From contig CAYTOA010000001.1 of NCBI GenBank assembly GCA_964439265.1, forward strand, positions 133,236 to 197,235: a stretch of DNA of 64,000 bases, given 5' to 3'. The stretch's first letter is position 1. Each line of letters starts with the position of its first letter. The position numbers and the translations under genes were made by a program. The stretch is from an uncultured Chitinophagaceae bacterium (GTDB lineage Bacteria; Bacteroidota; Ignavibacteria; UBA10030; UBA8401). Under the pieces are notes generated by a model that did not search any database, was not told the DNA's origin, and saw only the letters and a list, made by a program, of their open reading frames with translations. This document shows positions 2,594 through 50,305 of the stretch, in pieces.

Positions 2594-3439
2594 CTACTTG
2601 GTGAACGATTCTTTTGCTTCGGGCGACAATACTTCATTCATGCTTCCGGTCCGATATCCCTGAAGGTCAAGGGTGACGTATGTGAAACCCAGTTCTTTCA
2701 ATTGATCCACGAGAGAATACCGTAGTGCATCGTCGAGAAAGCGGTGAAGCTCCTGAGCGCCTACTTCGATACGTGCTGTCTTATCGTCGTGGTGGCGGAC
2801 GCGGTAGTATTTGAACCCGGCATTCCGGAGAATTCCCTCCGCCCTGTCAACTTTCGTCAGATTCTCTTTTGTGATACCGAAGCCGTACGGGAAACGAGAC
2901 GAGAGGCACGCGAACGACGCTTTATCCCACGTCGACAGGTTGAGATGTTCGGAAATTTCGCGGACCTCTATTTTAGACAACTCCGCTTCCAGCAATGGAG
3001 AGCGTACATTATTCTCTTTTTTCGCTTTCATGCCCGGGCGAAAATCTCCGACGTCATCGGTGATAGACCCATCGGCGATCCATGGAATATTCTCTTTCTC
3101 CGCGATTTCGGTGAGCTTGCCGAACAATTCCGTCTTGCAGAAATAGCACCTGTCGGGAGGGTTCTCCTGAAACTTCAGCTGGTCGGTCTCTTCCGTCGCA
3201 ACTTCGATATACCGGGAGCCGAAACTCTTCGCCAGCGCGGCCGCTTCCTCGTATTCCGCACTCGGGTAAGTTTCCGATCTACCAATGACGGCGATTGCAT
3301 TGTCGCCAAGAACATCGGTCGCTACTTTTAACAGCAGGGTGCTGTCGACCCCCCCCGAGTATCCGATGACCACCGAGCCGAGCTCAGCAATGATGGACCG
3401 GAGGCGTTCGTATTTTGTTTGGGTCAGCTGAGCCAGCAT
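2594..3439 (-). CDS. larE: PP-loop ATP pyrophosphatase, LarE-family (ATP-dependent sacrificial sulfur transferase-like)
   Basis: 281 aa with the PP-loop YSGGVDST near the N-terminus and CYFCK in the middle. Length and layout are typical of the COG1606/LarE family. Confidence 0.75.
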   Translation of the reverse strand: MLAQLTQTKYERLRSIIAELGSVVIGYSGGVDSTLLLKVATDVLGDNAIAVIGRSETYPSAEYEEAAALAKSFGSRYIEVATEETDQLKFQENPPDRCYFCKTELFGKLTEIAEKENIPWIADGSITDDVGDFRPGMKAKKENNVRSPLLEAELSKIEVREISEHLNLSTWDKASFACLSSRFPYGFGITKENLTKVDRAEGILRNAGFKYYRVRHHDDKTARIEVGAQELHRFLDDALRYSLVDQLKELGFTYVTLDLQGYRTGSMNEVLSPEAKESFTK

Positions 3440-3485
3440 ACCGATATTCTCCGTGTAATATTCCTGTATTTCAATGTACCTTCGT

Positions 3486-4373
3486 TTATGATGCGGTCCG
3501 CGCCGTCAGCGTTTCCACTACGGTTCGTCGAGCGGCATCGATCGGAAATTTCATTCCAGTCCACAATTCAAACGCCTTTGCCCCCTGGTGAACGAACATC
3601 TCCACTCCGTTGACCGTTGCCGCCCCGTCCTCATTTGCCCTTCGCAGGAGCGCCGTTTCAATGGGGGTGTATATAATATCGAAAATTATTTGATGATTTA
3701 AAAATCGAATTCCAGCAGGGATCGGCAGGGCGTCGGTATTCGGCGTCATGCCGGCGGGGGTCGTGTTTATTACGAGTGTCGATTCTGCAATGACCGCCCG
3801 AAGGCGACGTTCATCTGAAATATTGTCATAAACGACGTGGTGAAAAAGATTCCGGAACTCGCCGGTTAACTTCTCTGCTCGGGCAGCCGTCCTATTGTAG
3901 ATCTTCACCGAGGCAGGTGAGAAGTAATTTGATACTGAATATGCCGCAGCCCGTGCGCCTCCTCCGGCGCCGAGGATGATAACCGGGGCTTTGCGGATTC
4001 TTTCTTTGAACGGGTCTAGAGACTGTTGGATCCCGGCGACATCGGTGTTGTAGCCGGTGAACTTGCCTTCGTGGTTGACAATTGTATTAACGGCGCCGAT
4101 CGTCGCCGCGTCGTGGTCCACGGCATCGAGCAATGGAATAATAACTTCTTTATAAGGGATAGTCACATTCACGCCCGCAGTCCCGACCTTTCGCAATGAC
4201 GCTATGAGTGCCGGAAGGAATTCGCCGGCAACGTCGAAGACGCCATAGGTGAACGGAATGCCGAGTTCTTTAATGGCTGCCGAGTGCATTGCCGGCGAAA
4301 GGGTATGCGCGATCGGGTGGCCGATGATGCCGAGGCGTTGGAGAGGCTGTAAATTCATGGCTGCGTTGGTCAA
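3486..4373 (-). CDS. aroE: Shikimate dehydrogenase
   Basis: 295 aa with GIIGHPIAHTLSPAMHS at the N-terminus, NVTIPYK, and the GAGGGARA NADP-binding loop. Confidence 0.92.
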   Translation of the reverse strand: MTNAAMNLQPLQRLGIIGHPIAHTLSPAMHSAAIKELGIPFTYGVFDVAGEFLPALIASLRKVGTAGVNVTIPYKEVIIPLLDAVDHDAATIGAVNTIVNHEGKFTGYNTDVAGIQQSLDPFKERIRKAPVIILGAGGGARAAAYSVSNYFSPASVKIYNRTAARAEKLTGEFRNLFHHVVYDNISDERRLRAVIAESTLVINTTPAGMTPNTDALPIPAGIRFLNHQIIFDIIYTPIETALLRRANEDGAATVNGVEMFVHQGAKAFELWTGMKFPIDAARRTVVETLTARTAS

Positions 4374-4444: not shown

Positions 4445-5869
4445 CTAGCGCTGGAGCAGCGAAGAGAACTCTTTGATCGACTTGACGCCAAGGAATTCAG
4501 TCTCGAACCTTTTGCGCAGGTCGCTCTGCAGCGCGAACGCCGATTTGAGGGAGTCGACGGCGTCCAGCATCTTCTTCATCACGAAAAGGACTTTTGCGCG
4601 CGTATAATATGCCTCTGCAAATTGCTGATTGAGCTCGATGCATCGGTTCAACGCTTTGAGCGCTTCTTTCAGGTATCCCAGCTCGAACAGCGTGTCGCCG
4701 TAGTCAAACCAGGCTTCGTAGTTCTTCTTGTCGAGCTGCACAACCATTTTGTAGCCGATCAGGCATTCACGGTATTTTCCCAGATTGTATTCGACGTCGG
4801 CTTTGGCGTACCAAAGTTCGGGGTAATCACGGCAGATTTCGAGTGCGCGATTGTAGTCCTGCAGGGCTTTTTTGTACTGTTCGAGCGTATCGTAACAGCT
4901 GCCGCGTCCGAAAAACGACTCGTAATGTTCGTTGTCGTATTTGATCGCCTGCGTGAAACATTTGATCGCTTCGGTATAATTTCCCAGTTCTTCGTATGCA
5001 TTTCCCATATTATGCCACGCCGGAACATCTTTCGATTCATGACGGAGTGTTTGAGAATAGCACTCTACCGCTTCGTGGAATTTTCCCATATTGGCAAACG
5101 CATTGCCTTTATTGTACCATGCTGCGCCGAAATCGTCCTTGATGGCAATACACATGTCATAGCTGTCTATCGAGCGGGCAAAATCACCAATCCGGTTCAG
5201 TACGATGCCGCGGTTGTACCATGCATTGTAATTGTAAGGGTCGAGGTTGAGATGTTCATCGTAGCATTTGAGAGAATCCTCCAGCCGGTCCATGAAGTCA
5301 TAGCAAAATCCAAGTTCGAACATCGCATCTTTGTTTTCTTTATTCTCTTTCAGCAGGAACTCAAAGATCTCAGCAGCTTCTTTGTACCGCTCAATTTTTT
5401 CGAGTGTCACAGCCTTATTGAAAAGGGCTTCTTCACTGCCGGGTTCAATCGACAGAGCTTTTTCAAAACTTTCGAGCGCTTCATCTACCCGGTTTGCATT
5501 ATCGAACGTTATGCCGAGGTTAATATATATCTCACATTCATTCGGATTGAGGCTCACAGCGTGTTCATAACATTCGATCGCGTCATCGTACCGGTACATG
5601 TTGTTCAAGATCATTCCCCTCCGTACCCACGCATCCGAGCTGTACGGCACAAACTCGATCAACTGGTCTGCAAAATGGAGCGCTTCTTCAAACTTTTCCT
5701 GTTCGAAGTAGAAATCGACGATCTCTTCAAGGGCCTCAATAGTGCGGATGCCATTCCCCCCCTTCTTGAGGATATCCTTGAAGCGCTCGATCTCCTCACT
5801 ACGGTCGTTACGCCGCGGGGGTTGGCCTCCTAACTCATCGTCGAAGCTGTCGGAATCCAAATGAGACAT
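4445..5869 (-). CDS. Tetratricopeptide-repeat protein
   Basis: 474 aa with about 10 tandem 34-aa TPR units (AWYNRGIVLNRIGDF..., AWYNKGNAFANMGKF..., AWHNMGNAYEELGNY...). Confidence 0.9.
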   Translation of the reverse strand: MSHLDSDSFDDELGGQPPRRNDRSEEIERFKDILKKGGNGIRTIEALEEIVDFYFEQEKFEEALHFADQLIEFVPYSSDAWVRRGMILNNMYRYDDAIECYEHAVSLNPNECEIYINLGITFDNANRVDEALESFEKALSIEPGSEEALFNKAVTLEKIERYKEAAEIFEFLLKENKENKDAMFELGFCYDFMDRLEDSLKCYDEHLNLDPYNYNAWYNRGIVLNRIGDFARSIDSYDMCIAIKDDFGAAWYNKGNAFANMGKFHEAVECYSQTLRHESKDVPAWHNMGNAYEELGNYTEAIKCFTQAIKYDNEHYESFFGRGSCYDTLEQYKKALQDYNRALEICRDYPELWYAKADVEYNLGKYRECLIGYKMVVQLDKKNYEAWFDYGDTLFELGYLKEALKALNRCIELNQQFAEAYYTRAKVLFVMKKMLDAVDSLKSAFALQSDLRKRFETEFLGVKSIKEFSSLLQR

Positions 5870-6063
5870 AGAAATTTGCGTTGGTTGGTGGCGTAATGTA
5901 GCCTTGTTTAATTAAGTGAAAAAGCCGTCTTAAGTCAATAGCAGGCGGCCGGGATAGAACCCGCCGAATAGTAACTATTCCTGTTCATTTGACTTGGAAC
6001 AAAGACGAAGCGGAGTTACGCTAACTTCCTTATTGTTTTTGACACATAAATCCGCTATATTCA

Positions 6064-7413: not shown

Positions 7414-8235
7414 ATGTCTCCCCTACGCCAGCACATTGATGATACGATAAGATTTTTACGCACAAAGACTTCGGCATCGCCGGCGATCGGGATCATTTTG
7501 GGGACAGGCCTCGGAGGATTGGCAAAAGAAATCAAGACCGAGGTGGTGCTCGACTACGGCGATATTCCGCATTTCCCTTTGTCGACCGTCGAATCCCATC
7601 ATGGCAAGTTGATCTTTGGGACTCTTGGAAGGAAGAGTGTCGTTGCGATGCAGGGGCGCTTTCATTTTTATGAAGGCTACACCATGCAGCAGATCACGTT
7701 TCCGATCCGTATGATGAAATTCCTCGGGGTCGAGACGCTACTCGTTTCCAACGCTGCCGGAGGAATGAACCCTGCATATTCCCGCGGGGATATCATGCTG
7801 ATTACCGACCATATCAATTTGCTCGGCGACAATCCGTTGATAGGCCCCAACGATGATACTCTTGGGCCCCGCTTTCCGGACATGTCCGAGCCGTATACAA
7901 GAGATCTGATAGCATTGACCGAAAGAGTTGCGAGCGATTTAAAGATCAAAGTTCAAAAGGGAGTTTTCGTTGCCGTCCCTGGTCCCAACCTTGAGACACG
8001 CGCCGAGTATCGATTTCTTCGAGGAATCGGAGGAGACGTGGTCGGCATGTCTACAGTGCCGGAATGCATCGTAGCAGTCCACATGTCGATGCGAGTGCTG
8101 GGATTTTCGATTATTACGGATGAGTGTTTCCCTGACACACTCAAGCCGGCGAAACTTGATGAAATTGTTGCAACAGCGATGGCCGCAGAGCCGAAACTAA
8201 CCGCGATCATGAAAGAAGTGGTAAATCAATTATGA
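7414..8235 (+). CDS. Purine nucleoside phosphorylase (trimeric PNP family)
   Basis: 273 aa with [22 protein letters not shown] and VGMSTVPE motifs. Confidence 0.9.
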
Positions 8236-8309
8236 ATTAATAATTAAGAATTAAAAATGGTAGTTCAACAAGCAACCCCTGAATGGCCCCTCTTTAATTA
8301 TTAATTCAT
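8232..8309. repeat. AT-only inverted repeat / hairpin between the phosphorylase gene and ileS
   Basis: Perfect 16-bp arms ATGAATTAATAATTAA (8232-8247) and TTAATTATTAATTCAT (8294-8309). A second pairable word is ATTAAGAATT / AATTCTTAAT. The left arm overlaps the phosphorylase stop codon. Confidence 0.75.
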
Positions 8310-8334
8310 AATTCTTAATCATTAATTGTTTTCT

Positions 8335-13715: not shown

Positions 13716-13773
13716 CCCTCACCCAGTCCTTCGGACATCCCACTCCCGAAAGGAGAGGGACTAAGGGTGAGGG
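13716..13773 (+). repeat. GC-rich nested-hairpin repeat, copy A (upstream of the DUF559 gene)
   Basis: Sequence CCCTCACCCAGTCCTTCGGACATCCCACTCCCGAAAGGAGAGGGACTAAGGGTGAGGG. Outer stem CCCTCACCC/GGGTGAGGG; inner stems AGTCC/GGACT and CTCC/GGAG. Confidence 0.8.
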
Positions 13774-13796
13774 AGCTACTAGCTCGGGGGGATCCA

Positions 13797-14174
13797 ATGG
13801 GGAAACGATTCATCTCTTCGTCTCAATTTTCAACAACGAAGGCCCGTGCGCTTCGTCGGACGATGACTCCGGCGGAAAAGAGGTTCTGGTTGCTGGTGAG
13901 GAACAATCATATGGGCGTTAAATTTCGGAGACAATTCTCCATCGGCCCTTACATTGTAGATTTCTTTTGTTTTTCTGCGAAATTGGTAGTAGAGCTGGAT
14001 GGGAGTCGGCATTTTACCAGAGAAGGGAAAGAACAAGATTTTCATCGCGGTCAATTTCTACAAGCGCTCGGGATCACGGTACTTCGGTTTTCGAACAAGG
14101 AATTTTTAGCGAATCAGGAGGGAGTGATGCGGCTGATTTGGGAAAGTTCGCACAAAAAGGATCCCTCACCCTGA
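13797..14174 (+). CDS. DUF559 (Vsr-like fold) endonuclease-domain protein
   Basis: ARALRRTMTPAEKRFWLLVR...FRRQFSIGPYIVDFFC...LVVELDGSRH...VLRFSNKE matches the DUF559 pattern I know. The track start at 13767 lies inside repeat A, so the ATG at 13797 is preferred. Confidence 0.8.
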   Translation: MGKRFISSSQFSTTKARALRRTMTPAEKRFWLLVRNNHMGVKFRRQFSIGPYIVDFFCFSAKLVVELDGSRHFTREGKEQDFHRGQFLQALGITVLRFSNKEFLANQEGVMRLIWESSHKKDPSP

Positions 14175-14196
14175 CCCTCTCCCTTTGGAAGAGGGA
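14163..14196 (+). repeat. GC-rich repeat, partial copy B (overlaps the DUF559 stop codon)
   Basis: CCCTCACCCTGACCCTCTCCCTTTGGAAGAGGGA, with hairpin CCCTCT/AGAGGG. Its 5' CCTCACCCT is complementary to AGGGTGAGG at 14292-14300. Confidence 0.7.
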
Positions 14197-14249
14197 ATTA
14201 TGTCGAGATTATTTCTTTAAATGATTATTTGCTGCTATTGGAAAAGTTT

Positions 14250-14300
14250 CCCTCTCCTTGGAGGAGAGGGATGTCCCGACGAAGTCGGGACAGGGTGAGG
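14250..14300 (-). repeat. GC-rich nested-hairpin repeat, copy C (inverted relative to copy A)
   Basis: The reverse complement reads CCTCACCCTGTCCCGACTTCGTCGGGACATCCCTCTCCTCCAAGGAGAGGG and aligns block by block with copy A. Internal perfect hairpins are CCCTCTCC/GGAGAGGG and GTCCCGAC-GAA-GTCGGGAC. Confidence 0.8.
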
Positions 14301-14308
14301 TTCTAATA

Positions 14309-15133
14309 TTACTTCTGAGATTTTTCTTCCAGACGGACCTTCTCGATGTTCGGAGTGAAAATTACCACAAACGCTTCCTCGAGCTTCACAAAATCCACCG
14401 CCGGTACAACTTCTACCCGCTTGAACAGACTGCCCGATATCTCGGTCACAGCGCCGACGACTCCTATCTTGATGTTCGGCGGAAATACATTGCTGTATTC
14501 CGACGTCACGATTGCATCCCCAGTACGGACGTCGAGCGACTTTGCGATATTCTTCAGCATGACGGACCTGCCGTCCCACGCGATGATGCCGTCAACCCTG
14601 CTTCGCTGGACTTTGGCGCTTGCCCGAAAGTCTGCGTTGAGCATCGCCTGGCAGACTGAATAGTCTCCGCTGACAGCGATCACCCTTCCGACTAGCCCCT
14701 CGCCGGTGACCACGGGCATCCCGACTGCAACGCCGTCGTTTTCACCGATGTTCATCGTCAGCGTATTCCGTAGAAGGTTGAGATTCTTTGCAACGATCTT
14801 CCCGGCGATGAGCTTTGTTGTCGTTGTTTCTTTCAATGCGATCATGGAGCGGAGGCGCATGTTCTCTAGCCGCGCCTCCCGAAGTTGATTGACTTCATCG
14901 GCGAGGTTCACATTCATTTTTCGCAGCATTTCGTTCTCGCGCTCCATCTCGAAAACGTTCGGAATTACCGACACGGTGCTTTGGAAGGCGCCGACCATTC
15001 CCACCGCCAGCGAGCGAATACGCCGGACCTGTTCGTTATCATTCTGGGTGAGAAGGCCGATAGAGACGAGTACGAGGAAGGAAAAAATGATATACTCTTT
15101 GAAGAGAAAGTACAGTTGGTAGAGGCGCTGCAT
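14309..15133 (-). CDS. mreC: Rod shape-determining protein MreC
   Basis: 274 aa with an N-terminal TM helix, a coiled coil (ENEMLRKMNVNLADEVNQLRE) and a beta-barrel C-terminal region. It lies directly downstream of mreB. Confidence 0.9.
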   Translation of the reverse strand: MQRLYQLYFLFKEYIIFSFLVLVSIGLLTQNDNEQVRRIRSLAVGMVGAFQSTVSVIPNVFEMERENEMLRKMNVNLADEVNQLREARLENMRLRSMIALKETTTTKLIAGKIVAKNLNLLRNTLTMNIGENDGVAVGMPVVTGEGLVGRVIAVSGDYSVCQAMLNADFRASAKVQRSRVDGIIAWDGRSVMLKNIAKSLDVRTGDAIVTSEYSNVFPPNIKIGVVGAVTEISGSLFKRVEVVPAVDFVKLEEAFVVIFTPNIEKVRLEEKSQK

Positions 15134-15137
15134 TTTT

Positions 15138-15197
15138 CAATGATCAGTGATCAGTGAACAATGATCAGGAGGGATTTTCATTGTTCATTGATCATTG
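15138..15197. repeat. Imperfect hairpin between mreB and mreC (CAATGATCAGTGAACA word family)
   Basis: Left arm CAATGATCAGTGATCAGTGAACAATGA (15138-15164); right arm TCATTGTTCATTGATCATTG (15178-15197). This gives a 20-bp stem with one G-U pair and a 7-nt bulge. Confidence 0.75.
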
Positions 15198-15211
15198 TTA
15201 ATTGTTAATTG

Positions 15212-30241: not shown

Positions 30242-30323
30242 AAAAGTTAAAAATTAAAAGTGAAAAGTTAAAAGCTTGTACGAAGCAATTTTTAACTTTG
30301 AATTTTAAACTTTTAACTTTTTT
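30242..30323. repeat. AT-rich imperfect hairpin between hisB and hisH (AAAAGTTAAAA word family)
   Basis: The left arm AAAAGTTAAAAATTAAAAGTGAAAAGTTAAAAGC has no C until its final base. The right arm GCAATTTTTAACTTTGAATTTTAAACTTTTAACTTTT is nearly G-free. The left arm is 23/26 identical to the reverse complement of 39646-39676. Confidence 0.8.
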
Positions 30324-31693: not shown

Positions 31694-31701
31694 ACAATAA
31701 A

Positions 31702-31806
31702 CAATGAACAATGATCAGTGAACAGTAAAATATAATGCGAGACCGGCTTGTGAACTAAACCCCTAAAACCTCTTTATGATAATTGATCATTGCTCATTGT
31801 TCATTG
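31702..31806. repeat. Inverted repeat between hisA and hisF (CAATGAACAATGATCA word family)
   Basis: CAATGAACAATGA (31702-31714) pairs with TCATTGTTCATTG (31794-31806), and CAATGATCA pairs with TGATCATTG (31784-31792). The loop is ~66 nt. Confidence 0.7.
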
Positions 31807-37068: not shown

Positions 37069-37114
37069 AGGGGAAGCTTTTAGCTATTTGCTGTTAGTGG
37101 TTGGGGGGGGACCA

Positions 37115-37468
37115 ATGAGAAACTTCAGGAAACTCATTATTTGGCAGCAAGGTATACAGCTTGTAGCCGATGTCTACAAGCTGTCGGAAGAATTACGAGA
37201 TTGGGAAAAATACGGATTGAAGAGCCAGACCTGCCGAGCTGTTGTTTCTATCCCATCTAATATTGCAGAAGGATGTAGCAGACCAAGCGAGATAGAGTAC
37301 AGACGATTTTTGGAAATCGCTTTGGGATCGGCGTTTGAGCTTGAGACTCAGATTATAATTGTTCACAAACTTCATTTGGCTTCAACTGAAAGAGTTGGAA
37401 CTTTGAGAACCTGTCTCGAGATAGAACAGAAAATGATCAACGCATTGATTAGCAGGTTGAACCAATAA
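37115..37468 (+). CDS. Four-helix-bundle protein (23S rRNA intervening-sequence protein / Avd-like family)
   Basis: 117 aa: MRNFRKLIIWQQGIQLVADVYKL...SIPSNIAEGCSR...EIEYRRFLEIALGSAFELETQ. The NIAEG motif and size are typical of the family. The track start at 36968 lies inside serS. Confidence 0.85.
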   Translation: MRNFRKLIIWQQGIQLVADVYKLSEELRDWEKYGLKSQTCRAVVSIPSNIAEGCSRPSEIEYRRFLEIALGSAFELETQIIIVHKLHLASTERVGTLRTCLEIEQKMINALISRLNQ

Positions 37469-37496
37469 GCAAAATGCAAATAGCCAACAGCGAAAT

Positions 37497-39260
37497 ATGA
37501 AGTCACTGCTCCGTCTTCGTCCGTACCTCGCCAAGTACCAACGCACTCTCCTGTGGGGAGTTTGCACTGTTGTCATCAGCAACTTGTTTGTCGTGGCGAC
37601 GCCGCTCTTCATTGGAAATGCCGTCGATACCATCAAACATGGCGTCGATACCGGAGTGCTTCAGTATTCAAAACTCATCAGGGATGCCGGATTGATCGTC
37701 GTTTTTGCCATCGTCGCTGGTTTTATGACCTTTCTCACGAGGCAGACGATCATTGTCGTTTCGCGCAAGATTGAATACGATCTGCGCAACGACTTTCTTG
37801 CCCACATACAAAAGCTGCCTCTTAATTATTTCCAGAACACCCCCACCGGCGATCTGATGGCGCATGCGACGAACGACATCTCTGCAGTGCGCAACGCTCT
37901 CGGTCCGGGCATCATGTATCCCTCCGACACGTTCATGACGTTTTCCATGGCGTTGACGCTGATGTTCGTCAAGGATTGGTCGCTGACGCTCGTCGCGCTT
38001 GTTCCTCTCCCCCTCATCTCCTACGCCGTCTACAAGCTTGGAAAGATCATTCATGCAAAGTTCAACGAACGGCAGGAGCAGTATTCGCTCCTCACGACGC
38101 GCGCACAGGAGAACCTCTCCGGTATCAGGGTCGTCAAGGCGTATGTCCGCGAAGAGTACGAGATCGGCCTGTTCGAGAAATTGAGCTGGGTGTACCTGAA
38201 GAAGAATCTCGTGCTGGCAAAAGCGCAGTCGATCATGTGGCCGCTGATGTACATGCTGGTCGGTATCTCGCTGGTCATCACGGTGTACTTCGGCGGACTG
38301 CAGGTTATCGCGGGGAAAATATCCATCGGAACATTGACTGCCTTCTTCACATATCTTTCGATGCTGATATGGCCGATGATCGCCTTCGGATGGGTCACGA
38401 ATATCATCCAGCAGGGAGCGGCGTCGATGGAGCGGCTTGCGAAGATTTTCGACACTGTGCCGGAGATCCGCGATACGGAAGAGACAGATATCTTGATCAA
38501 GCACATCGACGGAGAGATCGAATTCAAGAATGTTTCTTTCACTCATAAAGGCGCGGCAAAGCCGACCCTCAGAAACATCGACCTCAAAATCCCGAAAGGT
38601 ACGACGCTCGCCGTTGTCGGCTACACCGGCGCCGGCAAGAGCACGTTCATCAATTTGTTGCCGCGGCTGTATGACGTGACGGAAGGGGAATTGCTTATTG
38701 ACGGCATCAACATCAAAAAAATTCCCCTGGAGGTTCTGCGATCACACGTTGGATGTGTGCCGCAGGAAACATTCTTGTTCTCGGAAACGATCTCCGAAAA
38801 CATCAGCTACGGTGTGGACGGAATGACTCACGAACAGGTCCGCGAAGCCGCGGAGATCTCACAAATTGCGAAAGACGTGAACGACTTTCCGCAGCAATTC
38901 GAGACCGCGCTCGGCGAACGCGGGATCACGTTGTCGGGAGGTCAGAAGCAGCGCACAAGTATTGCCCGTGCCATCCTGCGGGAGCCGAAAATTCTGATCC
39001 TTGACGATGCACTTTCATCGGTGGATACGTACACCGAAGAAGCGATACTTAAACGACTTCGCCGCGTCATGGAAAACCGGACGAGCATCATCATCAGTCA
39101 CCGCATTTCGACCGTCAAGGATGCCGATATGATCATCGTGATGGACAAAGGGGAGATCGTAGAGCGGGGACGTCACGATGAGCTTGTCGAACTCAACGGC
39201 ATCTATGCGAACCTGCATTACAAGCAGCTGCTGGAAAGGGAGCTGGAACAGCTCAATTGA
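37497..39260 (+). CDS. ABC exporter, fused permease/ATPase (half-transporter 1)
   Basis: 587 aa with 6 TM helices, Walker A GYTGAGKST, signature LSGGQKQR and Walker B ILILDDA. Confidence 0.92.
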   Translation: MKSLLRLRPYLAKYQRTLLWGVCTVVISNLFVVATPLFIGNAVDTIKHGVDTGVLQYSKLIRDAGLIVVFAIVAGFMTFLTRQTIIVVSRKIEYDLRNDFLAHIQKLPLNYFQNTPTGDLMAHATNDISAVRNALGPGIMYPSDTFMTFSMALTLMFVKDWSLTLVALVPLPLISYAVYKLGKIIHAKFNERQEQYSLLTTRAQENLSGIRVVKAYVREEYEIGLFEKLSWVYLKKNLVLAKAQSIMWPLMYMLVGISLVITVYFGGLQVIAGKISIGTLTAFFTYLSMLIWPMIAFGWVTNIIQQGAASMERLAKIFDTVPEIRDTEETDILIKHIDGEIEFKNVSFTHKGAAKPTLRNIDLKIPKGTTLAVVGYTGAGKSTFINLLPRLYDVTEGELLIDGINIKKIPLEVLRSHVGCVPQETFLFSETISENISYGVDGMTHEQVREAAEISQIAKDVNDFPQQFETALGERGITLSGGQKQRTSIARAILREPKILILDDALSSVDTYTEEAILKRLRRVMENRTSIIISHRISTVKDADMIIVMDKGEIVERGRHDELVELNGIYANLHYKQLLERELEQLN

Positions 39261-39283
39261 AAATTAAAAATGCAAAATTAAAA
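39257..39283. repeat. Left arm of the AT-rich inverted repeat flanking the four-helix-bundle ORF
   Basis: TTGAAAATTAAAAATGCAAAATTAAAA matches the reverse complement of 39646-39676 (GTGAAAAATTAAAAGTGTAAAATTAAAAAAA) at ~26/29 positions with one 1-nt gap. Confidence 0.8.
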
Positions 39284-39645
39284 TGGCACACGAGGGGGAT
39301 ATTCTTGATCGTACATACAAGTTTGCCTTGCGCGTCATTGCACTATCTCGTCAGTTGCCCGACTCAACGGATAGCCGGGTTCTGATTCGACAACTTGTAC
39401 GCTCAGGCACCTCTGTTGGGGCGAATGTGGAAGAAGCAACGGCAGGTTCGTCGAGAGAAGACTTTATATACAAAATGAATATTGCGTTAAAAGAAGCGCG
39501 TGAAACTCACTATTGGTTACGCTTGGCAAGAGATAGCAAATACGTCAGCCCGAAAAAATTTGATGCAATTATTCAAGAGGCAGATGAACTTCGAAGGATA
39601 TTAGGCGCTATTGTTAGTAAAAGCCGAAGCTCGGGGAAACAATAA
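39283..39645 (+). CDS. Four-helix-bundle protein (23S rRNA intervening-sequence protein / Avd-like family)
   Basis: 120 aa: DRTYKFALRVIALSRQLP...QLVRSGTSVGANVEEA...KMNIALKEARETHYWLRL. Confidence 0.85.
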   Translation: MAHEGDILDRTYKFALRVIALSRQLPDSTDSRVLIRQLVRSGTSVGANVEEATAGSSREDFIYKMNIALKEARETHYWLRLARDSKYVSPKKFDAIIQEADELRRILGAIVSKSRSSGKQ

Positions 39646-39676
39646 TTTTTTTAATTTTACACTTTTAATTTTTCAC
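39646..39676. repeat. Right arm of the AT-rich inverted repeat flanking the four-helix-bundle ORF
   Basis: TTTTTTTAATTTTACACTTTTAATTTTTCAC; see the left arm at 39257-39283 and the homologous hairpin at 30242-30323. Confidence 0.8.
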
Positions 39677-39683
39677 TGATACA

Positions 39684-41456
39684 ATGCACGAAGAAGAAAT
39701 TCTCGGTAAAGCGTACGACGGAAAGCTGATGAAGCGGCTGCTCCATTACCTTCGTCCGTACAAATGGTACGTTGTGCTCGGCATCGTGCTGAGCATGGTG
39801 GTCTCAGCGCTCGAGGCAGTGCGGCCGTACTTCACGAAGATCGCTGTCGATGTTAACATCAAAAACCATGACGACCATGGACTGCTGATCACGGCGTTGA
39901 TGTTCCTGAGCGTCCTGACGCTTCGCGGCGTGATGCAGTATTTTAATTCCTATCTCACGCAGTGGATCGGGCAGCGGACCATCTTCGACCTGCGGATGGA
40001 ACTCTTCAGGCATCTCCAGAATCTTTCGCTGAAGTTCTACGACAGGAATCCGATCGGCCGGCTCATCACGCGCGTCACGAGCGACGTCGAAGTACTCAAC
40101 GACATGTTCTCGTCGGGCATCGTGATGGTGTTCAGCGACGTCTTCATGATCGCAGGAATCTTATGGTTCATGTTTTCAATGAACTGGGGGCTCGCGCTGG
40201 TGTCGCTCAGCGTTCTCCCGTTCTTGTTCTACGGTACATTCCTTTTTCGAAAGAAAGCCCGTGAAGCGTACCGCGACGTCCGGATACAGATCGCTAAGAT
40301 CAATACGTTTATGCAGGAACATATCACGGGGATGATCGTCGACCAGATCTTCAACCGTGAGGAGAAGGCGTACGATCAGTTCACCGGACTGAACGCCGCA
40401 CACCGCGACGCCAACATCCGTTCGATTTTCTATTATGCTGTGTTTTACCCCGCCGTCGATATTATCGGAGCGATTGCAATAGGGCTGATCGTTTGGTATG
40501 CCGGCGGAAAGACGCTCGAGGGAAAAGTGACCATCGGAACGATCATGGCGTTCCTTCAATTTAACGAAATGTTCTGGCGGCCGATACGCGATTTGTCGGA
40601 AAAGTACAACATCATGCAGACGGCGATGGCTTCATCAGAGCGGATTTTTAAGCTCCTCGACGATCAAAGCATTCTACAGAATCCTGAGAAAGCGGTTCCG
40701 CTGCCGGCCATGAAGGGGAAGGTTGAATTCCGCAATGTCTGGTTTGCCTACAGCGACGAAGATTGGGTGCTGAAAAATGTTTCGTTTACGATGAATCAAG
40801 GCGAGACGATTGCGTTCGTCGGACATACGGGAGCTGGTAAAACCACAATCATCAGCCTCCTCTCGCGTTTCTATGAGATCCAGAAAGGTGAAATACTCGT
40901 CGACGACATTAACATCAAAGATATAAACGTGGCGGATTTGAGGGCGCATATTGCAGTGGTACTCCAGGATGTATTCCTCTTTTCGGGAGATGTGAAAGGG
41001 AATATCAGTTTGGGGAACGAGGCCATACCGTTCGAACGTGTGAAAGCAGCCGCCGAGTTTGTGGGAATTGACCAATTCATCCAGACGATGCCGAAGCAGT
41101 ACGACGAAGAGGTAAAAGAACGGGGCTCGACCCTTTCCGTCGGTCAGAAGCAGCTTCTTTCATTTGCCCGCGCACTCGCGTACAATCCGAAAATCCTTGT
41201 CCTGGATGAAGCGACGTCGAGCGTCGATACGCAGACGGAATTGCTTATCCAATCCGCCATTAAAAAATTACTTGCCGGCAGAAGTTCTATCGTCATTGCT
41301 CACCGGCTCTCCACGATCCAAAGTGCGGATAAGATTATCGTGATGCACAAGGGAGAGATCCGTGAGTCCGGCACTCATCAGCAGCTTCTTGCACTCGGAG
41401 GCATTTACTATAAACTCTATCAGCTGCAATACAGGGAGCAGGAAGTAGGGGAGTGA
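39684..41456 (+). CDS. ABC exporter, fused permease/ATPase (half-transporter 2)
   Basis: 590 aa with Walker A GHTGAGKTT, signature LSVGQKQL and Walker B ILVLDEA. Confidence 0.92.
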   Translation: MHEEEILGKAYDGKLMKRLLHYLRPYKWYVVLGIVLSMVVSALEAVRPYFTKIAVDVNIKNHDDHGLLITALMFLSVLTLRGVMQYFNSYLTQWIGQRTIFDLRMELFRHLQNLSLKFYDRNPIGRLITRVTSDVEVLNDMFSSGIVMVFSDVFMIAGILWFMFSMNWGLALVSLSVLPFLFYGTFLFRKKAREAYRDVRIQIAKINTFMQEHITGMIVDQIFNREEKAYDQFTGLNAAHRDANIRSIFYYAVFYPAVDIIGAIAIGLIVWYAGGKTLEGKVTIGTIMAFLQFNEMFWRPIRDLSEKYNIMQTAMASSERIFKLLDDQSILQNPEKAVPLPAMKGKVEFRNVWFAYSDEDWVLKNVSFTMNQGETIAFVGHTGAGKTTIISLLSRFYEIQKGEILVDDINIKDINVADLRAHIAVVLQDVFLFSGDVKGNISLGNEAIPFERVKAAAEFVGIDQFIQTMPKQYDEEVKERGSTLSVGQKQLLSFARALAYNPKILVLDEATSSVDTQTELLIQSAIKKLLAGRSSIVIAHRLSTIQSADKIIVMHKGEIRESGTHQQLLALGGIYYKLYQLQYREQEVGE

Positions 41457-41589: not shown

Positions 41590-42372
41590 ATGACTAATTC
41601 AGGATCCCAAAATAAGAATCAACATAAAAACTATGAAATTCTAAATTTGATTGGATACGGGTTGGCCAAATTTGATTTGGCTTTTGTTAAAGCATTTGGG
41701 TATAAGACAAAATCTTCTTTTTATTCCCATATGATAAAGATCGGGATTGCCGAAACCGTAGGCACGGTGAAAAATCGACAAGATTTGTTCGACCCTTTCT
41801 TTGCAAATACAAGAAAGGGTTGGTGGCAGAAAGGAAATGCATATATTCATCGGAAAATTTTTATTGATTCATTGTTTGGCAATCTTGATGTTACATCTTA
41901 TGCAGATGTTGTCAAATTGTACCTTAAAGCCAAACTCAAAATAGATTTGGGAGATTTAAGGATTACGCCAATTCTAAAGAGTAGATTCAAACAACTGCAA
42001 ATAACAGGGCAAGAAGCTGAGCTTTATTTTCTCAACAACTATTCATCAATAGACGAATTCAAAGATGGTAAACTGGAAGATGCTAGGCTTTTCGGAGACG
42101 GGTATGATTTTCAGGTTGAAGTTGAATCACATTATTTTTTAACAGAAGTAAAGGGCTTGCGAACCCAAAGTGGAAGTATTCGATTCACGCAGAACGAATA
42201 TAAAAAAGCTAGGGAAGACCGAGATGACTATGCTCTTATTGTAGTGAGCAATCTTAATGAGTCTCCTAAAATCAGTCCGATTTTCAATCCAGTTAAAATC
42301 CTGGTCTTTAAAGAACAAACAATATCTCAGTCGCCGCAATTAACTTATAATACTGGTTCGATTTTATGGTAA
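41590..42372 (+). CDS. DUF3883-type PD-(D/E)xK nuclease-like protein with an unrecognised N-terminal domain
   Basis: 260 aa. The C-terminal half reads GQEAELYFLNNY...GDGYDFQVEVESHYFLTEVKG...IRFTQNEYKKA...DDYALIVV (D...E-x-K core). The gene is visibly AT-rich relative to its flanks. Confidence 0.65.
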   Translation: MTNSGSQNKNQHKNYEILNLIGYGLAKFDLAFVKAFGYKTKSSFYSHMIKIGIAETVGTVKNRQDLFDPFFANTRKGWWQKGNAYIHRKIFIDSLFGNLDVTSYADVVKLYLKAKLKIDLGDLRITPILKSRFKQLQITGQEAELYFLNNYSSIDEFKDGKLEDARLFGDGYDFQVEVESHYFLTEVKGLRTQSGSIRFTQNEYKKAREDRDDYALIVVSNLNESPKISPIFNPVKILVFKEQTISQSPQLTYNTGSILW

Positions 42373-42472: not shown

Positions 42473-42874
42473 CTATTTTATCCACCTTACTTTAATCTTG
42501 CTTTCCACCTGTTTAAACTCTTTATCGCCGGTCACAAGTTCGCACTTCTTTTTCATTGCCAGAGCCGCAGCAAAACAATCTGCGAACGACATTTTGTTGA
42601 AAGCCTTTAGTTCTGCAGCGGTTCGGGTCAATTCTTTGTCTGCATCGACCACCTGGATCGGCAGCGCGTGCAAAGTGTCTTCTGCCAGTTTCGCCGTCTT
42701 TTCACCGCCGGTGCGATAGCCGTGATATAGAACTTCTCCCCAGTTGACAACGCACATGTATGCTATGCGGTCCTTTAAAACACATTCGTCGAGCACGGCG
42801 GAGACCTCGTCGTAGCCTTCTTCGCGTTCCAGAAAAGAAATCAAGGCGTAGCTGTCTAATACTGTTGCTTTCAT
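42473..42874 (-). CDS. vapC: PIN-domain toxin (VapC family)
   Basis: 133 aa with an acidic quartet pattern (LDSYALI..., ...NWGEV..., SFADCFAAA, ...TGDKEF). It overlaps the upstream antitoxin gene by 4 nt. Confidence 0.85.
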   Translation of the reverse strand: MKATVLDSYALISFLEREEGYDEVSAVLDECVLKDRIAYMCVVNWGEVLYHGYRTGGEKTAKLAEDTLHALPIQVVDADKELTRTAAELKAFNKMSFADCFAAALAMKKKCELVTGDKEFKQVESKIKVRWIK

Positions 42875-43101
42875 AACTCGCGCTCCCGTTTCTTGTCATC
42901 CATGAGCGACTTGAGCATTTTGCCATCTGTCCCCAAAATGCCAGCAAGGCTTTCAAAATAGTTTTTGTCGAGGGGCTGGATGATAAGCTTCCCGTTCTGC
43001 TCGATGAATGCGATCTTTGTCCCCTTTTTTATTCCGAACTTACGGCGGATGCTCGCCGGAACGACAACCTGTCCTTTAACGGTTACAACTGATGTTTCCA
43101 T
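42871..43101 (-). CDS. AbrB/MazE/SpoVT-family antitoxin
   Basis: 76 aa with VTVKGQVVVPASIRRKFGIKKGTKIAF, a swapped-hairpin barrel motif. Confidence 0.85.
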   Translation of the reverse strand: METSVVTVKGQVVVPASIRRKFGIKKGTKIAFIEQNGKLIIQPLDKNYFESLAGILGTDGKMLKSLMDDKKREREL

Positions 43102-50231: not shown

Positions 50232-50305
50232 GCACCCATAGCTCAACTGGATAGAGCATCAGACTTCGAATCTGAGGGTTGGGGGTTCGACTCCCTCTGG
50301 GTGCA
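50232..50305 (+). tRNA. tRNA-Arg (anticodon TCG)
   Basis: GCACCCA acceptor paired with TGGGTGC, D-arm AGCTCAACTGGATAGAGC, anticodon stem-loop TCAGA-CTTCGAA-TCTGA, T-arm GGGGGTTCGACTCCCTC. CCA is not encoded. Confidence 0.93.

Follow-up and report, generated by a model that had tools for sequence, protein, structure and literature searches.

The operon for two ATP-binding cassette (ABC) half-transporters in an uncultured Chitinophagaceae bacterium (Ignavibacteria in the GTDB lineage; contig CAYTOA010000001.1, positions 133,236 to 197,235) is split by a small gene, hb1, which encodes a four-helix-bundle protein and is enclosed by the two arms of an inverted repeat. These 64 kb are referred to here as the window, and positions are counted from its first letter. 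With a probability of roughly 0.6, the insert is a gene cassette of the S23p type, known from the intervening sequences (IVSs) of 23S rRNA, that lives in an mRNA operon instead of 23S rRNA. The best-supported description is that of a selfish but protein-coding IVS-type cassette riding on the transcripts of its host operon. The layout had been pointed out in an earlier reading of the window (the original prediction), whose observation is confirmed as written and whose interpretation is supported by the comparisons described below.

Structure of the hb1 cassette

The cassette and its two host genes are arranged as follows:

37497..39260, + strand, ABC1, upstream host gene, half-transporter 1 of 587 aa with PF00664 (ABC_membrane) and PF00005 (ABC_tran) domains
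39253..39283, + strand, left arm of the hb1 inverted repeat, about four A-rich heptamers (CAATTGA AAATTAA AAATGCA AAATTAA AA)
39283..39645, + strand, hb1, four-helix-bundle gene of 120 aa (PF05635 / TIGR02436)
39649..39679, + strand, right arm of the hb1 inverted repeat, about four T-rich heptamers, reverse complement of the left arm
39684..41456, + strand, ABC2, downstream host gene, half-transporter 2 of 590 aa with PF00664 and PF00005 domains

The gap between ABC1 and ABC2 (39261-39683, 423 nt) holds hb1 as its single open reading frame (ORF), and the predicted succession of stem arm, ORF and stem arm is borne out, since two 31-nt arms and the 120-aa ORF fill it. The arms (39253-39283 and 39649-39679) are complementary without gaps at 26/31 positions (84%). 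The left arm shares bases with the ABC1 stop codon and with the A of the hb1 ATG, and the right arm begins 4 nt past the hb1 stop codon and ends 5 nt before the ATG of ABC2. Each arm comprises about four degenerate heptamers (also readable as GAAAATT AAAAATG CAAAATT AAAA) with a lag-7 identity of 0.76, the left arm also having 14-nt tandem units, and AAAATTAAAA occurs six times in the window against 0.22 expected. In RNA folding of the unit, the arms are paired in both the minimum-energy and the centroid structures.

Given that A prevails in one arm and T in the other, complementarity was judged against composition-matched shuffles of the right flank (n=5000). The A+T content of the arms is 90%, and some complementarity between low-complexity spacers of this kind is to be expected by chance; nevertheless, none of the 5000 shuffles reached the observed score, and this geometry is found again in dozens of independent loci whose heptamers are quite unlike one another, so that chance pairing can be set aside almost completely. 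When whole 7-nt blocks were permuted, the score was reached by 1.7% of shuffles.

Sigma-70-like hexamer pairs are found in both arms (39257-39284 and 39656-39685), with 10/12 matches and, in one case, an extended -10 TG; their -10 elements overlap the start codons of hb1 and ABC2. In a scan of the hb1 region for sigma-70 promoters and terminators, the hexamer match total was not above that of shuffles. For these two reasons, the promoter hexamers in the arms are uninformative.

Protein family and resemblance to rRNA intervening sequences

As predicted, hb1 belongs to the four-helix-bundle family named after the IVSs of 23S rRNA. It matches PF05635 (“23S rRNA-intervening sequence protein”; E 6e-26, 91.2 bits, cut-off 33.8) and the NCBIfam model TIGR02436 (“four helix bundle protein”; E 2e-30, 105.2 bits, cut-off 24) far above the curated cut-offs and across the whole domain. 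More than 5,600 relatives of hb1 are found at E<=1e-5, and the nearest solved structure is PDB 2RLD (E 5.7e-24); PF05635 proteins with solved structure have been described as pentameric (PMC4990558).

In Coxiella burnetii, the IVS in helix 45 of 23S rRNA is 428-444 nt long and carries its S23p (PF05635) ORF in the loop of a 28-bp terminal-repeat stem; three tandem GACAGAT heptamers and a degenerate fourth, in a copy number that varies between strains, stand directly before the ATG, and RNase III cuts at the start of the first heptamer repeat (PMC4990558). The ORF has decayed by deletion or substitution in some strains, the distribution is sporadic, and horizontal transfer is suspected; the origin and purpose of 23S rRNA IVSs have been called unclear since 1990 (PMC4990558). 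The S23p IVSs of Coxiella and Leptospira share with the hb1 cassette the PF05635 family, a size close to 423 nt, a stem of about 28 bp around the ORF, and three to four tandem heptamers right before the start codon. The IVS-like build is therefore closer to that of Coxiella than the original prediction had recognized, extending to the tandem heptamers and the stem length. Decay, sporadic distribution, suspected horizontal transfer and variation in heptamer copy number are likewise common to S23p IVSs and cassettes of the window type. The differences concern location, processing and the state of the ORF: S23p IVSs sit in a helix of 23S rRNA (9, 25 or 45), whereas the hb1 cassette lies at a junction in a protein-coding operon; excision by RNase III has been demonstrated for S23p IVSs, whereas for the hb1 cassette it is a prediction; and the Coxiella ORF is apparently unexpressed and decaying, whereas hb1 is under purifying selection.

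The four-helix bundle also recalls Avd of diversity-generating retroelements (DGRs), and hb1 might be taken for an orphan Avd gene that survived the loss of the reverse transcriptase (RT) and the template repeat of a degenerate DGR. Avd does have a related four-helix fold, and hb1 is weakly similar in sequence to bAvd and DivGenRetAVD. The scores, however, stay far below the cut-offs (19 bits against 40 for bAvd; 25.8 against 80 bits for the Avd equivalog), the genomic layout of Avd is unrelated, and the cassette layout of some 100 related loci can be explained without an RT throughout. The window itself contains no RT-like ORF, its sole ORF with a YxDD motif encoding a class II ribonucleotide reductase. 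A DGR remnant is thus hardly credible, in agreement with the original prediction.

A second cassette and four empty hairpins in the window

The gap between serS and ABC1 is occupied by a second cassette (37076-37491):

37076..37097, + strand, left arm of the hb2 cassette (GCTTTTA GCTATTT GCTGTTA G), directly after serS, identified from sequence and RNA folds
37115..37468, + strand, hb2, four-helix-bundle gene of 117 aa with its ATG at 37115, of another subfamily than hb1 (PF05635; TIGR02436)
37469..37491, + strand, right arm of the hb2 cassette (GCAAAAT GCAAATA GCCAACA GC), ending 5 nt before the ABC1 ATG

The hb2 product matches PF05635 with E 1.5e-32 (112.4 bits) and TIGR02436 with E 2e-31 (108.3 bits). 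Like hb1, it is enclosed by a stem, in that the left arm pairs with 37476-37491 in both the minimum-energy and centroid folds (shuffle p ~0.001); arms of the hb2 type are clearer in the related loci L001 and L010 (16/17). In phmmer searches against all ORFs of the window, hb1 and hb2 each matched their own ORF alone and hence do not stem from a recent duplication.

Four further gaps within operons are occupied exactly by heptamer hairpins that contain no gene (z-scores -4 to -6.5):

8228..8327, unstranded, empty heptamer hairpin of the AATTAAN type between a phosphorylase gene and ileS
15131..15211, unstranded, empty heptamer hairpin of the CAGTGAT type, filling the mreB / mreC gap (genes on the - strand)
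30242..30321, unstranded, empty heptamer hairpin of the AAAAGTT type, filling the hisB / hisH gap exactly
31695..31806, unstranded, empty heptamer hairpin of the CAATGAA type in the hisA / hisF gap

The hairpin at 30242 had already been proposed as an empty stem and is real: its arms (30242-30273 and 30290-30321) are 32 nt long and 84% complementary, with a 16-nt loop and a z-score of -5.2. The mreB / mreC hairpin has G·T wobbles on the + strand, its flanking genes lie on the - strand, and as RNA the transcribed strand is 13 kcal/mol weaker. An Rfam scan of the window gave one tRNA (50232-50305) as the sole match, with no known RNA family at the arms and no rRNA.

Presence, absence and exchange at orthologous loci

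A scan with ABC2, restricted to one genome per species, yielded 80 syntenic serS-ABC1-ABC2 loci from uncultured Ignavibacteriota/Bacteroidota metagenome-assembled genomes (MAGs). In most of these, ABC1 and ABC2 overlap (ATGA, -1) or lie 2-60 nt apart, and the adjacency that had been assumed for them is thus the usual arrangement. A PF05635 gene occupies the gap in 13 loci including the window, where the gap measures 413-487 nt and up to 946 nt. These 13 loci fall in at least eight separate lineages of a neighbour-joining tree of ABC1+ABC2, and their sisters have a clean site (L029, L011), a right-arm remnant alone (L006) or an empty heptamer hairpin (L020), which is the kind of presence/absence polymorphism among MAGs that the original prediction had asked for. 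All filled sites have an A-rich heptamer arm upstream and a complementary T-rich arm downstream; the sequences vary by locus, and the complementarity is kept. The arms of L010 are complementary at 29/29 positions, those of L084 and L085 form 20-22 unbroken base pairs, and in 8/14 cassettes the left arm finds its best or second-best partner in the right arm of the same cassette. From these comparisons, the ancestral state is that of adjacent ABC genes, with the whole unit, arms included, probably inserted at a junction of 0-5 nt; since there was no spacer at that junction, the arms must have accompanied the ORF or shortly preceded it. A hidden Markov model built from the ABC-junction copies detected no further four-helix-bundle gene in ~900 kb of related loci, so the junction copies are not part of a dense local family.

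Relics of the hb1 type were observed at the serS-ABC1 junction in other lineages, namely an empty hairpin with a 78-nt loop (L014, 3631-3756), a lone T-rich array of ~6 units upstream of ABC1 (L044) and a lone A-rich fragment (L006). Both junctions have therefore been visited repeatedly.

The tree of the four-helix-bundle genes is only weakly congruent with that of their hosts. For ABC2, the window is closer to L010 (dN 0.03) than to L172 (dN 0.074); for the four-helix-bundle gene the order is reversed (dN 0.445 to L010, 0.144 to L172), which means that the cassette at this site has been exchanged in one lineage or more. Against close relatives, where synonymous sites are unsaturated, dN/dS of the gene is 0.08-0.15; the protein is therefore functional and under purifying selection. 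At the same time, stages of decay are found. L001, which is closest to the window with an ABC identity of 94%, has frameshifts in both four-helix-bundle genes (3406-3624 and 5588-5923) and two intact pairs of arms; the gene is split in L016; in the close relative L172, an internal deletion has removed the 5′ half of the hb2 cassette and kept both arms; and a single arm remains in L006, L013, L018 and L044. Frameshift, internal deletion and lone arm thus form a series by which a complete cassette could readily turn into an empty hairpin. The patchy occurrence on the host tree, the incongruent alleles and the decay intermediates together uphold the proposal that the insert is a discrete unit, which is gained, swapped and lost.

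These data also bear on whether hb1 has become a regular member of its operon, for example an accessory protein of the exporter, with the stem as a regulatory hairpin that tunes the ABC1:ABC2 ratio. Such domestication would account for the purifying selection and for the position of the close homologues, which always lie at the ABC junction. It is very unlikely, however, and already largely refuted by comparison of the loci: most orthologous operons, those of sister taxa included, lack the gene; it is broken in L001 and L016; its alleles do not follow the host; and the same cassette type is found in unrelated operons and in 23S rRNA (PMC4990558).

Wider occurrence and arm types

Cassettes of this build are not confined to the ABC operon. 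A relative of hb1 with 57% identity lies between two macB/FtsX genes and has the same kind of arms, and a metagenome scan with hb2 recovered 80 relatives (42-62% identity) from marine, freshwater and soil samples. Among the 71 of these with enough flanking sequence, 56% reach an ungapped inverted-repeat score of at least 10, a score found in 0/65 neighbour genes and in 2.8% of shuffles. The original prediction had counted a lack of flanking inverted repeats around other copies as evidence against itself; the opposite is the case, as hb2, the macB-operon copy and most of the 80 metagenome relatives are bracketed. When 86 distinct cassettes from genomes, metagenomes and viral contigs were pooled, 73 (85%) had at least one 7-periodic arm and 42 had two, compared with 3.7% of random windows, and the median number of heptamer units per arm was 3.4. 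Of 48 cassettes having two scorable neighbours, 44 point in the same direction as both; the spacers measure 12-90 nt. Inverted heptamer arms and co-orientation are therefore general features of these cassettes. A scan for rRNA signature motifs in ~170 related loci found none with more than one motif, isolated matches being at chance level, and none of the loci lies in rRNA. The viral-contig scan gave two matches of the same build, with the heptamers GGAGAGT and GGGAATT; with just these two, phage carriage is not prominent.

The type of heptamer tracks the clade of the protein. In the hb1 clade, A4/T4 tracts are phased at 7 nt in 12/15 cases, and in hb2-like genes from unrelated metagenomes, AGC/GCT is phased at 7 nt in 38/80; sub-clades have AGTATCA, GGTATTA/AACCCAA and other heptamers. 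Two arm types can occur in the same genome, as hb1 (A4/T4-phased) and hb2 (GCTnTTA) demonstrate. Expanded arms of 8-11 units (CTCTTGG x10, AAAACCC x8) were observed in L105 (2858-2940), in the downstream arm of L137 and in both arms of L107, from which it follows that the arrays grow and shrink by slippage.

Proposed behavior of the cassette and the case against it

According to the favored explanation, a unit of ~420 nt, consisting of about four tandem heptamers, a PF05635 gene of 120 aa and the same heptamers in inverted orientation, would have been inserted as a whole at the junction of two translationally coupled ABC half-transporter genes. The cassette is most likely transcribed by read-through, because it is co-oriented with the operon and leaves no room for signals of its own. 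In the transcript, the arms would pair into a stem of ~28 bp that closes off the insert, and by analogy with the Coxiella IVS this stem most likely serves as a site of RNase III cleavage or of insulation. Its most likely benefit would be to make an insert tolerable where continuity matters, as at operon junctions and in rRNA helices. Cassettes would be gained, exchanged between lineages and degraded, with frameshifts and internal deletions as intermediate steps and a lone arm or an empty hairpin as the end state.

Several observations weigh against this explanation. The hb1 stem consists almost entirely of A-U pairs, and folding of the complete cassette gives no improvement over shuffled sequence (z = 0.4). 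Where an RNA helix has been under selection for a long time, an excess of G·U over A·C is normally expected; no such excess is seen on the sense strand at the non-Watson-Crick arm positions of 40 cassettes (31 vs 44). Moreover, the non-transcribed strand of the mreB / mreC hairpin has by far the better folding energy (-33.8 vs -20.7 kcal/mol). The G·U count and this strand asymmetry speak against strong selection at the RNA level. As for mobility, no recent jump to a new site was found, the hb1 relatives with 75-99% identity all being at the ABC junction, and neither a transposase nor an integrase nor a target-site duplication is apparent.

The main rival to the RNA-level cassette operates on DNA. 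In a REPtron, a RAYT gene (REP-associated tyrosine transposase) lies between inverted REP (repetitive extragenic palindromic) sequences, which are also dispersed in intergenic regions and whose type co-varies with the protein clade; the RAYT protein is an HUH nuclease with known chemistry. By analogy, the four-helix-bundle protein would recognize its own heptamer as DNA, the arms would be terminal inverted repeats, and the empty hairpins would be non-autonomous derivatives that are created, spread or maintained with the help of the protein, RNA pairing being incidental. The likeness is considerable, comprising a small gene bracketed by an inverted short repeat that is also found gene-free in gaps (inverted arms and four gene-free hairpins within 64 kb, with hb1-like or related heptamers) and a repeat type that follows the protein clade and not the host. 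The lack of a G·U bias in the arms fits as well, as does the viral contig with a four-helix-bundle gene between GGGAATT arrays.

Further support for a DNA-level system comes from Xanthomonas campestris, in which Rehm et al. (2015) described 186 arrays of the heptamer GGGAATC, mostly of four units (28 nt); 70 arrays form inverted pairs, convergent and 21-67 nt apart, for example between groES and groEL, atpA and atpG, or gltB and gltD (PMC4692102). Such pairs in Xanthomonas and Nostoc (GGGAATC / GGGGAYT) mostly lie between co-oriented genes of an operon; they are transcribed, with lengths that differ among closely related species, and one GGGAATC array extends over the start of XCC0516, which encodes a PF05635 protein of solved structure (PMC4692102). 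The XCC0516 gene is located after bccP. The arrays were read as G-quadruplex (G4) motifs, and no link to PF05635 was drawn (PMC4692102). The inverted pairs match the four empty hairpins of the window; they differ in that their heptamers are described as G4-forming, whereas those of the window are A/T-rich and unable to form G4.

Nevertheless, a REPtron-like system seems unlikely on present evidence. No catalytic family was matched by hb1 or hb2, no catalytic motif was seen in either, and to our knowledge PF05635 has no known catalytic motif or activity, in contrast to the HUH nuclease of REPtrons, whose repeat is a single palindromic REP instead of a tandem heptamer array. Identical or near-identical copies at different sites, which would mark a recent transposition, were not found. 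In L172 the cassette shrinks toward an empty hairpin by plain deletion, and the empty hairpins therefore need no active spreading. Finally, the correlation between heptamer and clade could reflect co-inheritance of arms and ORF.

Two other kinds of element may be compared with the IVS-type cassette. MacGregor (2015) reported direct repeats of the heptamer TAACTGA before start codons in Beggiatoaceae, Cyanobacteria and Bacteroidetes (PMC4679880). These share with the window cassettes tandem heptamers that end a few nucleotides from a start codon, a location in operons and a scattered phylogeny; unlike the window arms, they are almost all direct, without an inverted partner, and are tied to no gene family. 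Integron gene cassettes have a single attC at the 3′ end and form an array beside intI/attI. They were rejected as a model for the insert, which has arms at both ends, is solitary in housekeeping operons and has no integrase nearby.

Other inserts and neighboring genes

The ABC1-ABC2 junction is a hot spot that also receives other inserts. They include an IS200-like/RAYT gene beside a surviving T-rich heptamer arm (L013, 5299-6000), a gene pair resembling a type I restriction-modification system (L040, 2772-6000), arrays of REP-like GC-rich hairpins (L042, 5814-6000) and, in an Ignavibacteriaceae-like clade (L051/L057/L060/L062/L069/L070/L075/L076/L080), a 2-hydroxyacid dehydrogenase gene of ~335 aa. 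Downstream of ABC2, the window contains an ORF with a NOV_C domain (41590-42372, + strand), followed by two ORFs on the - strand (42473-42874 and 42871-43101); at the place of the latter (42473-43101), a PIN-domain gene and a MazE-type antitoxin gene are called in L084, L085, L169 and L171.

The ORF-in-stem layout is found with two other gene families. In the window, a DUF559 (PF04480, E 3.8e-34) endonuclease-like ORF (13767-14174) lies within G+C-rich inverted repeats of the GGAGAGGGA type (13733-13760 / 14249-14276 and 13750-13774 / 14162-14186), which form a long stem with non-heptamer arms. In L054, a GxxExxY / PDDEXK_3 gene (2397-2834; TIGR04256, E 9e-41) just upstream of serS lies inside a 26-nt inverted repeat; it is the third small multi-copy family with this layout, after the four-helix-bundle and DUF559 families.

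Implications

Inserts of this type were already known in 23S rRNA; what is new is an IVS-type cassette in an mRNA operon. A literature search, incomplete in its coverage, found no work that links PF05635 genes outside rRNA to inverted heptamer arrays. It is tempting to speculate further, although we rather doubt that so broad a statement will hold, that PF05635 genes and their cognate inverted heptamer arrays constitute one widespread class of operon-riding selfish cassette, whose protein would recognize its own array of about four units. This class would unite three phenomena that have been handled apart until now: the ORF-bearing 23S IVSs; the heptamer repeats and inverted pairs in operon gaps, which are in excess in Xanthomonas, cyanobacteria and Bacteroidota/Ignavibacteriota; and the large multi-copy four-helix-bundle families.

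The pattern that links PF05635 genes, inverted heptamer arrays, intra-operon hairpins and rRNA IVSs may thus unify observations that have so far been unexplained. If the rRNA inserts are rare but conspicuous landing sites of a cassette of operon junctions, the origin of IVSs becomes directly testable. The cassettes are also a candidate source for the over-represented heptameric repeats and intra-operon palindromes of several phyla. Since translationally coupled genes apparently suffer no harm from being split by them, a stem that makes an insert “invisible” would be of interest for the design of synthetic operons. For a very large and uncharacterized protein family, the arrays provide a first handle on function, in the form of the question whether the protein binds its own heptamers.

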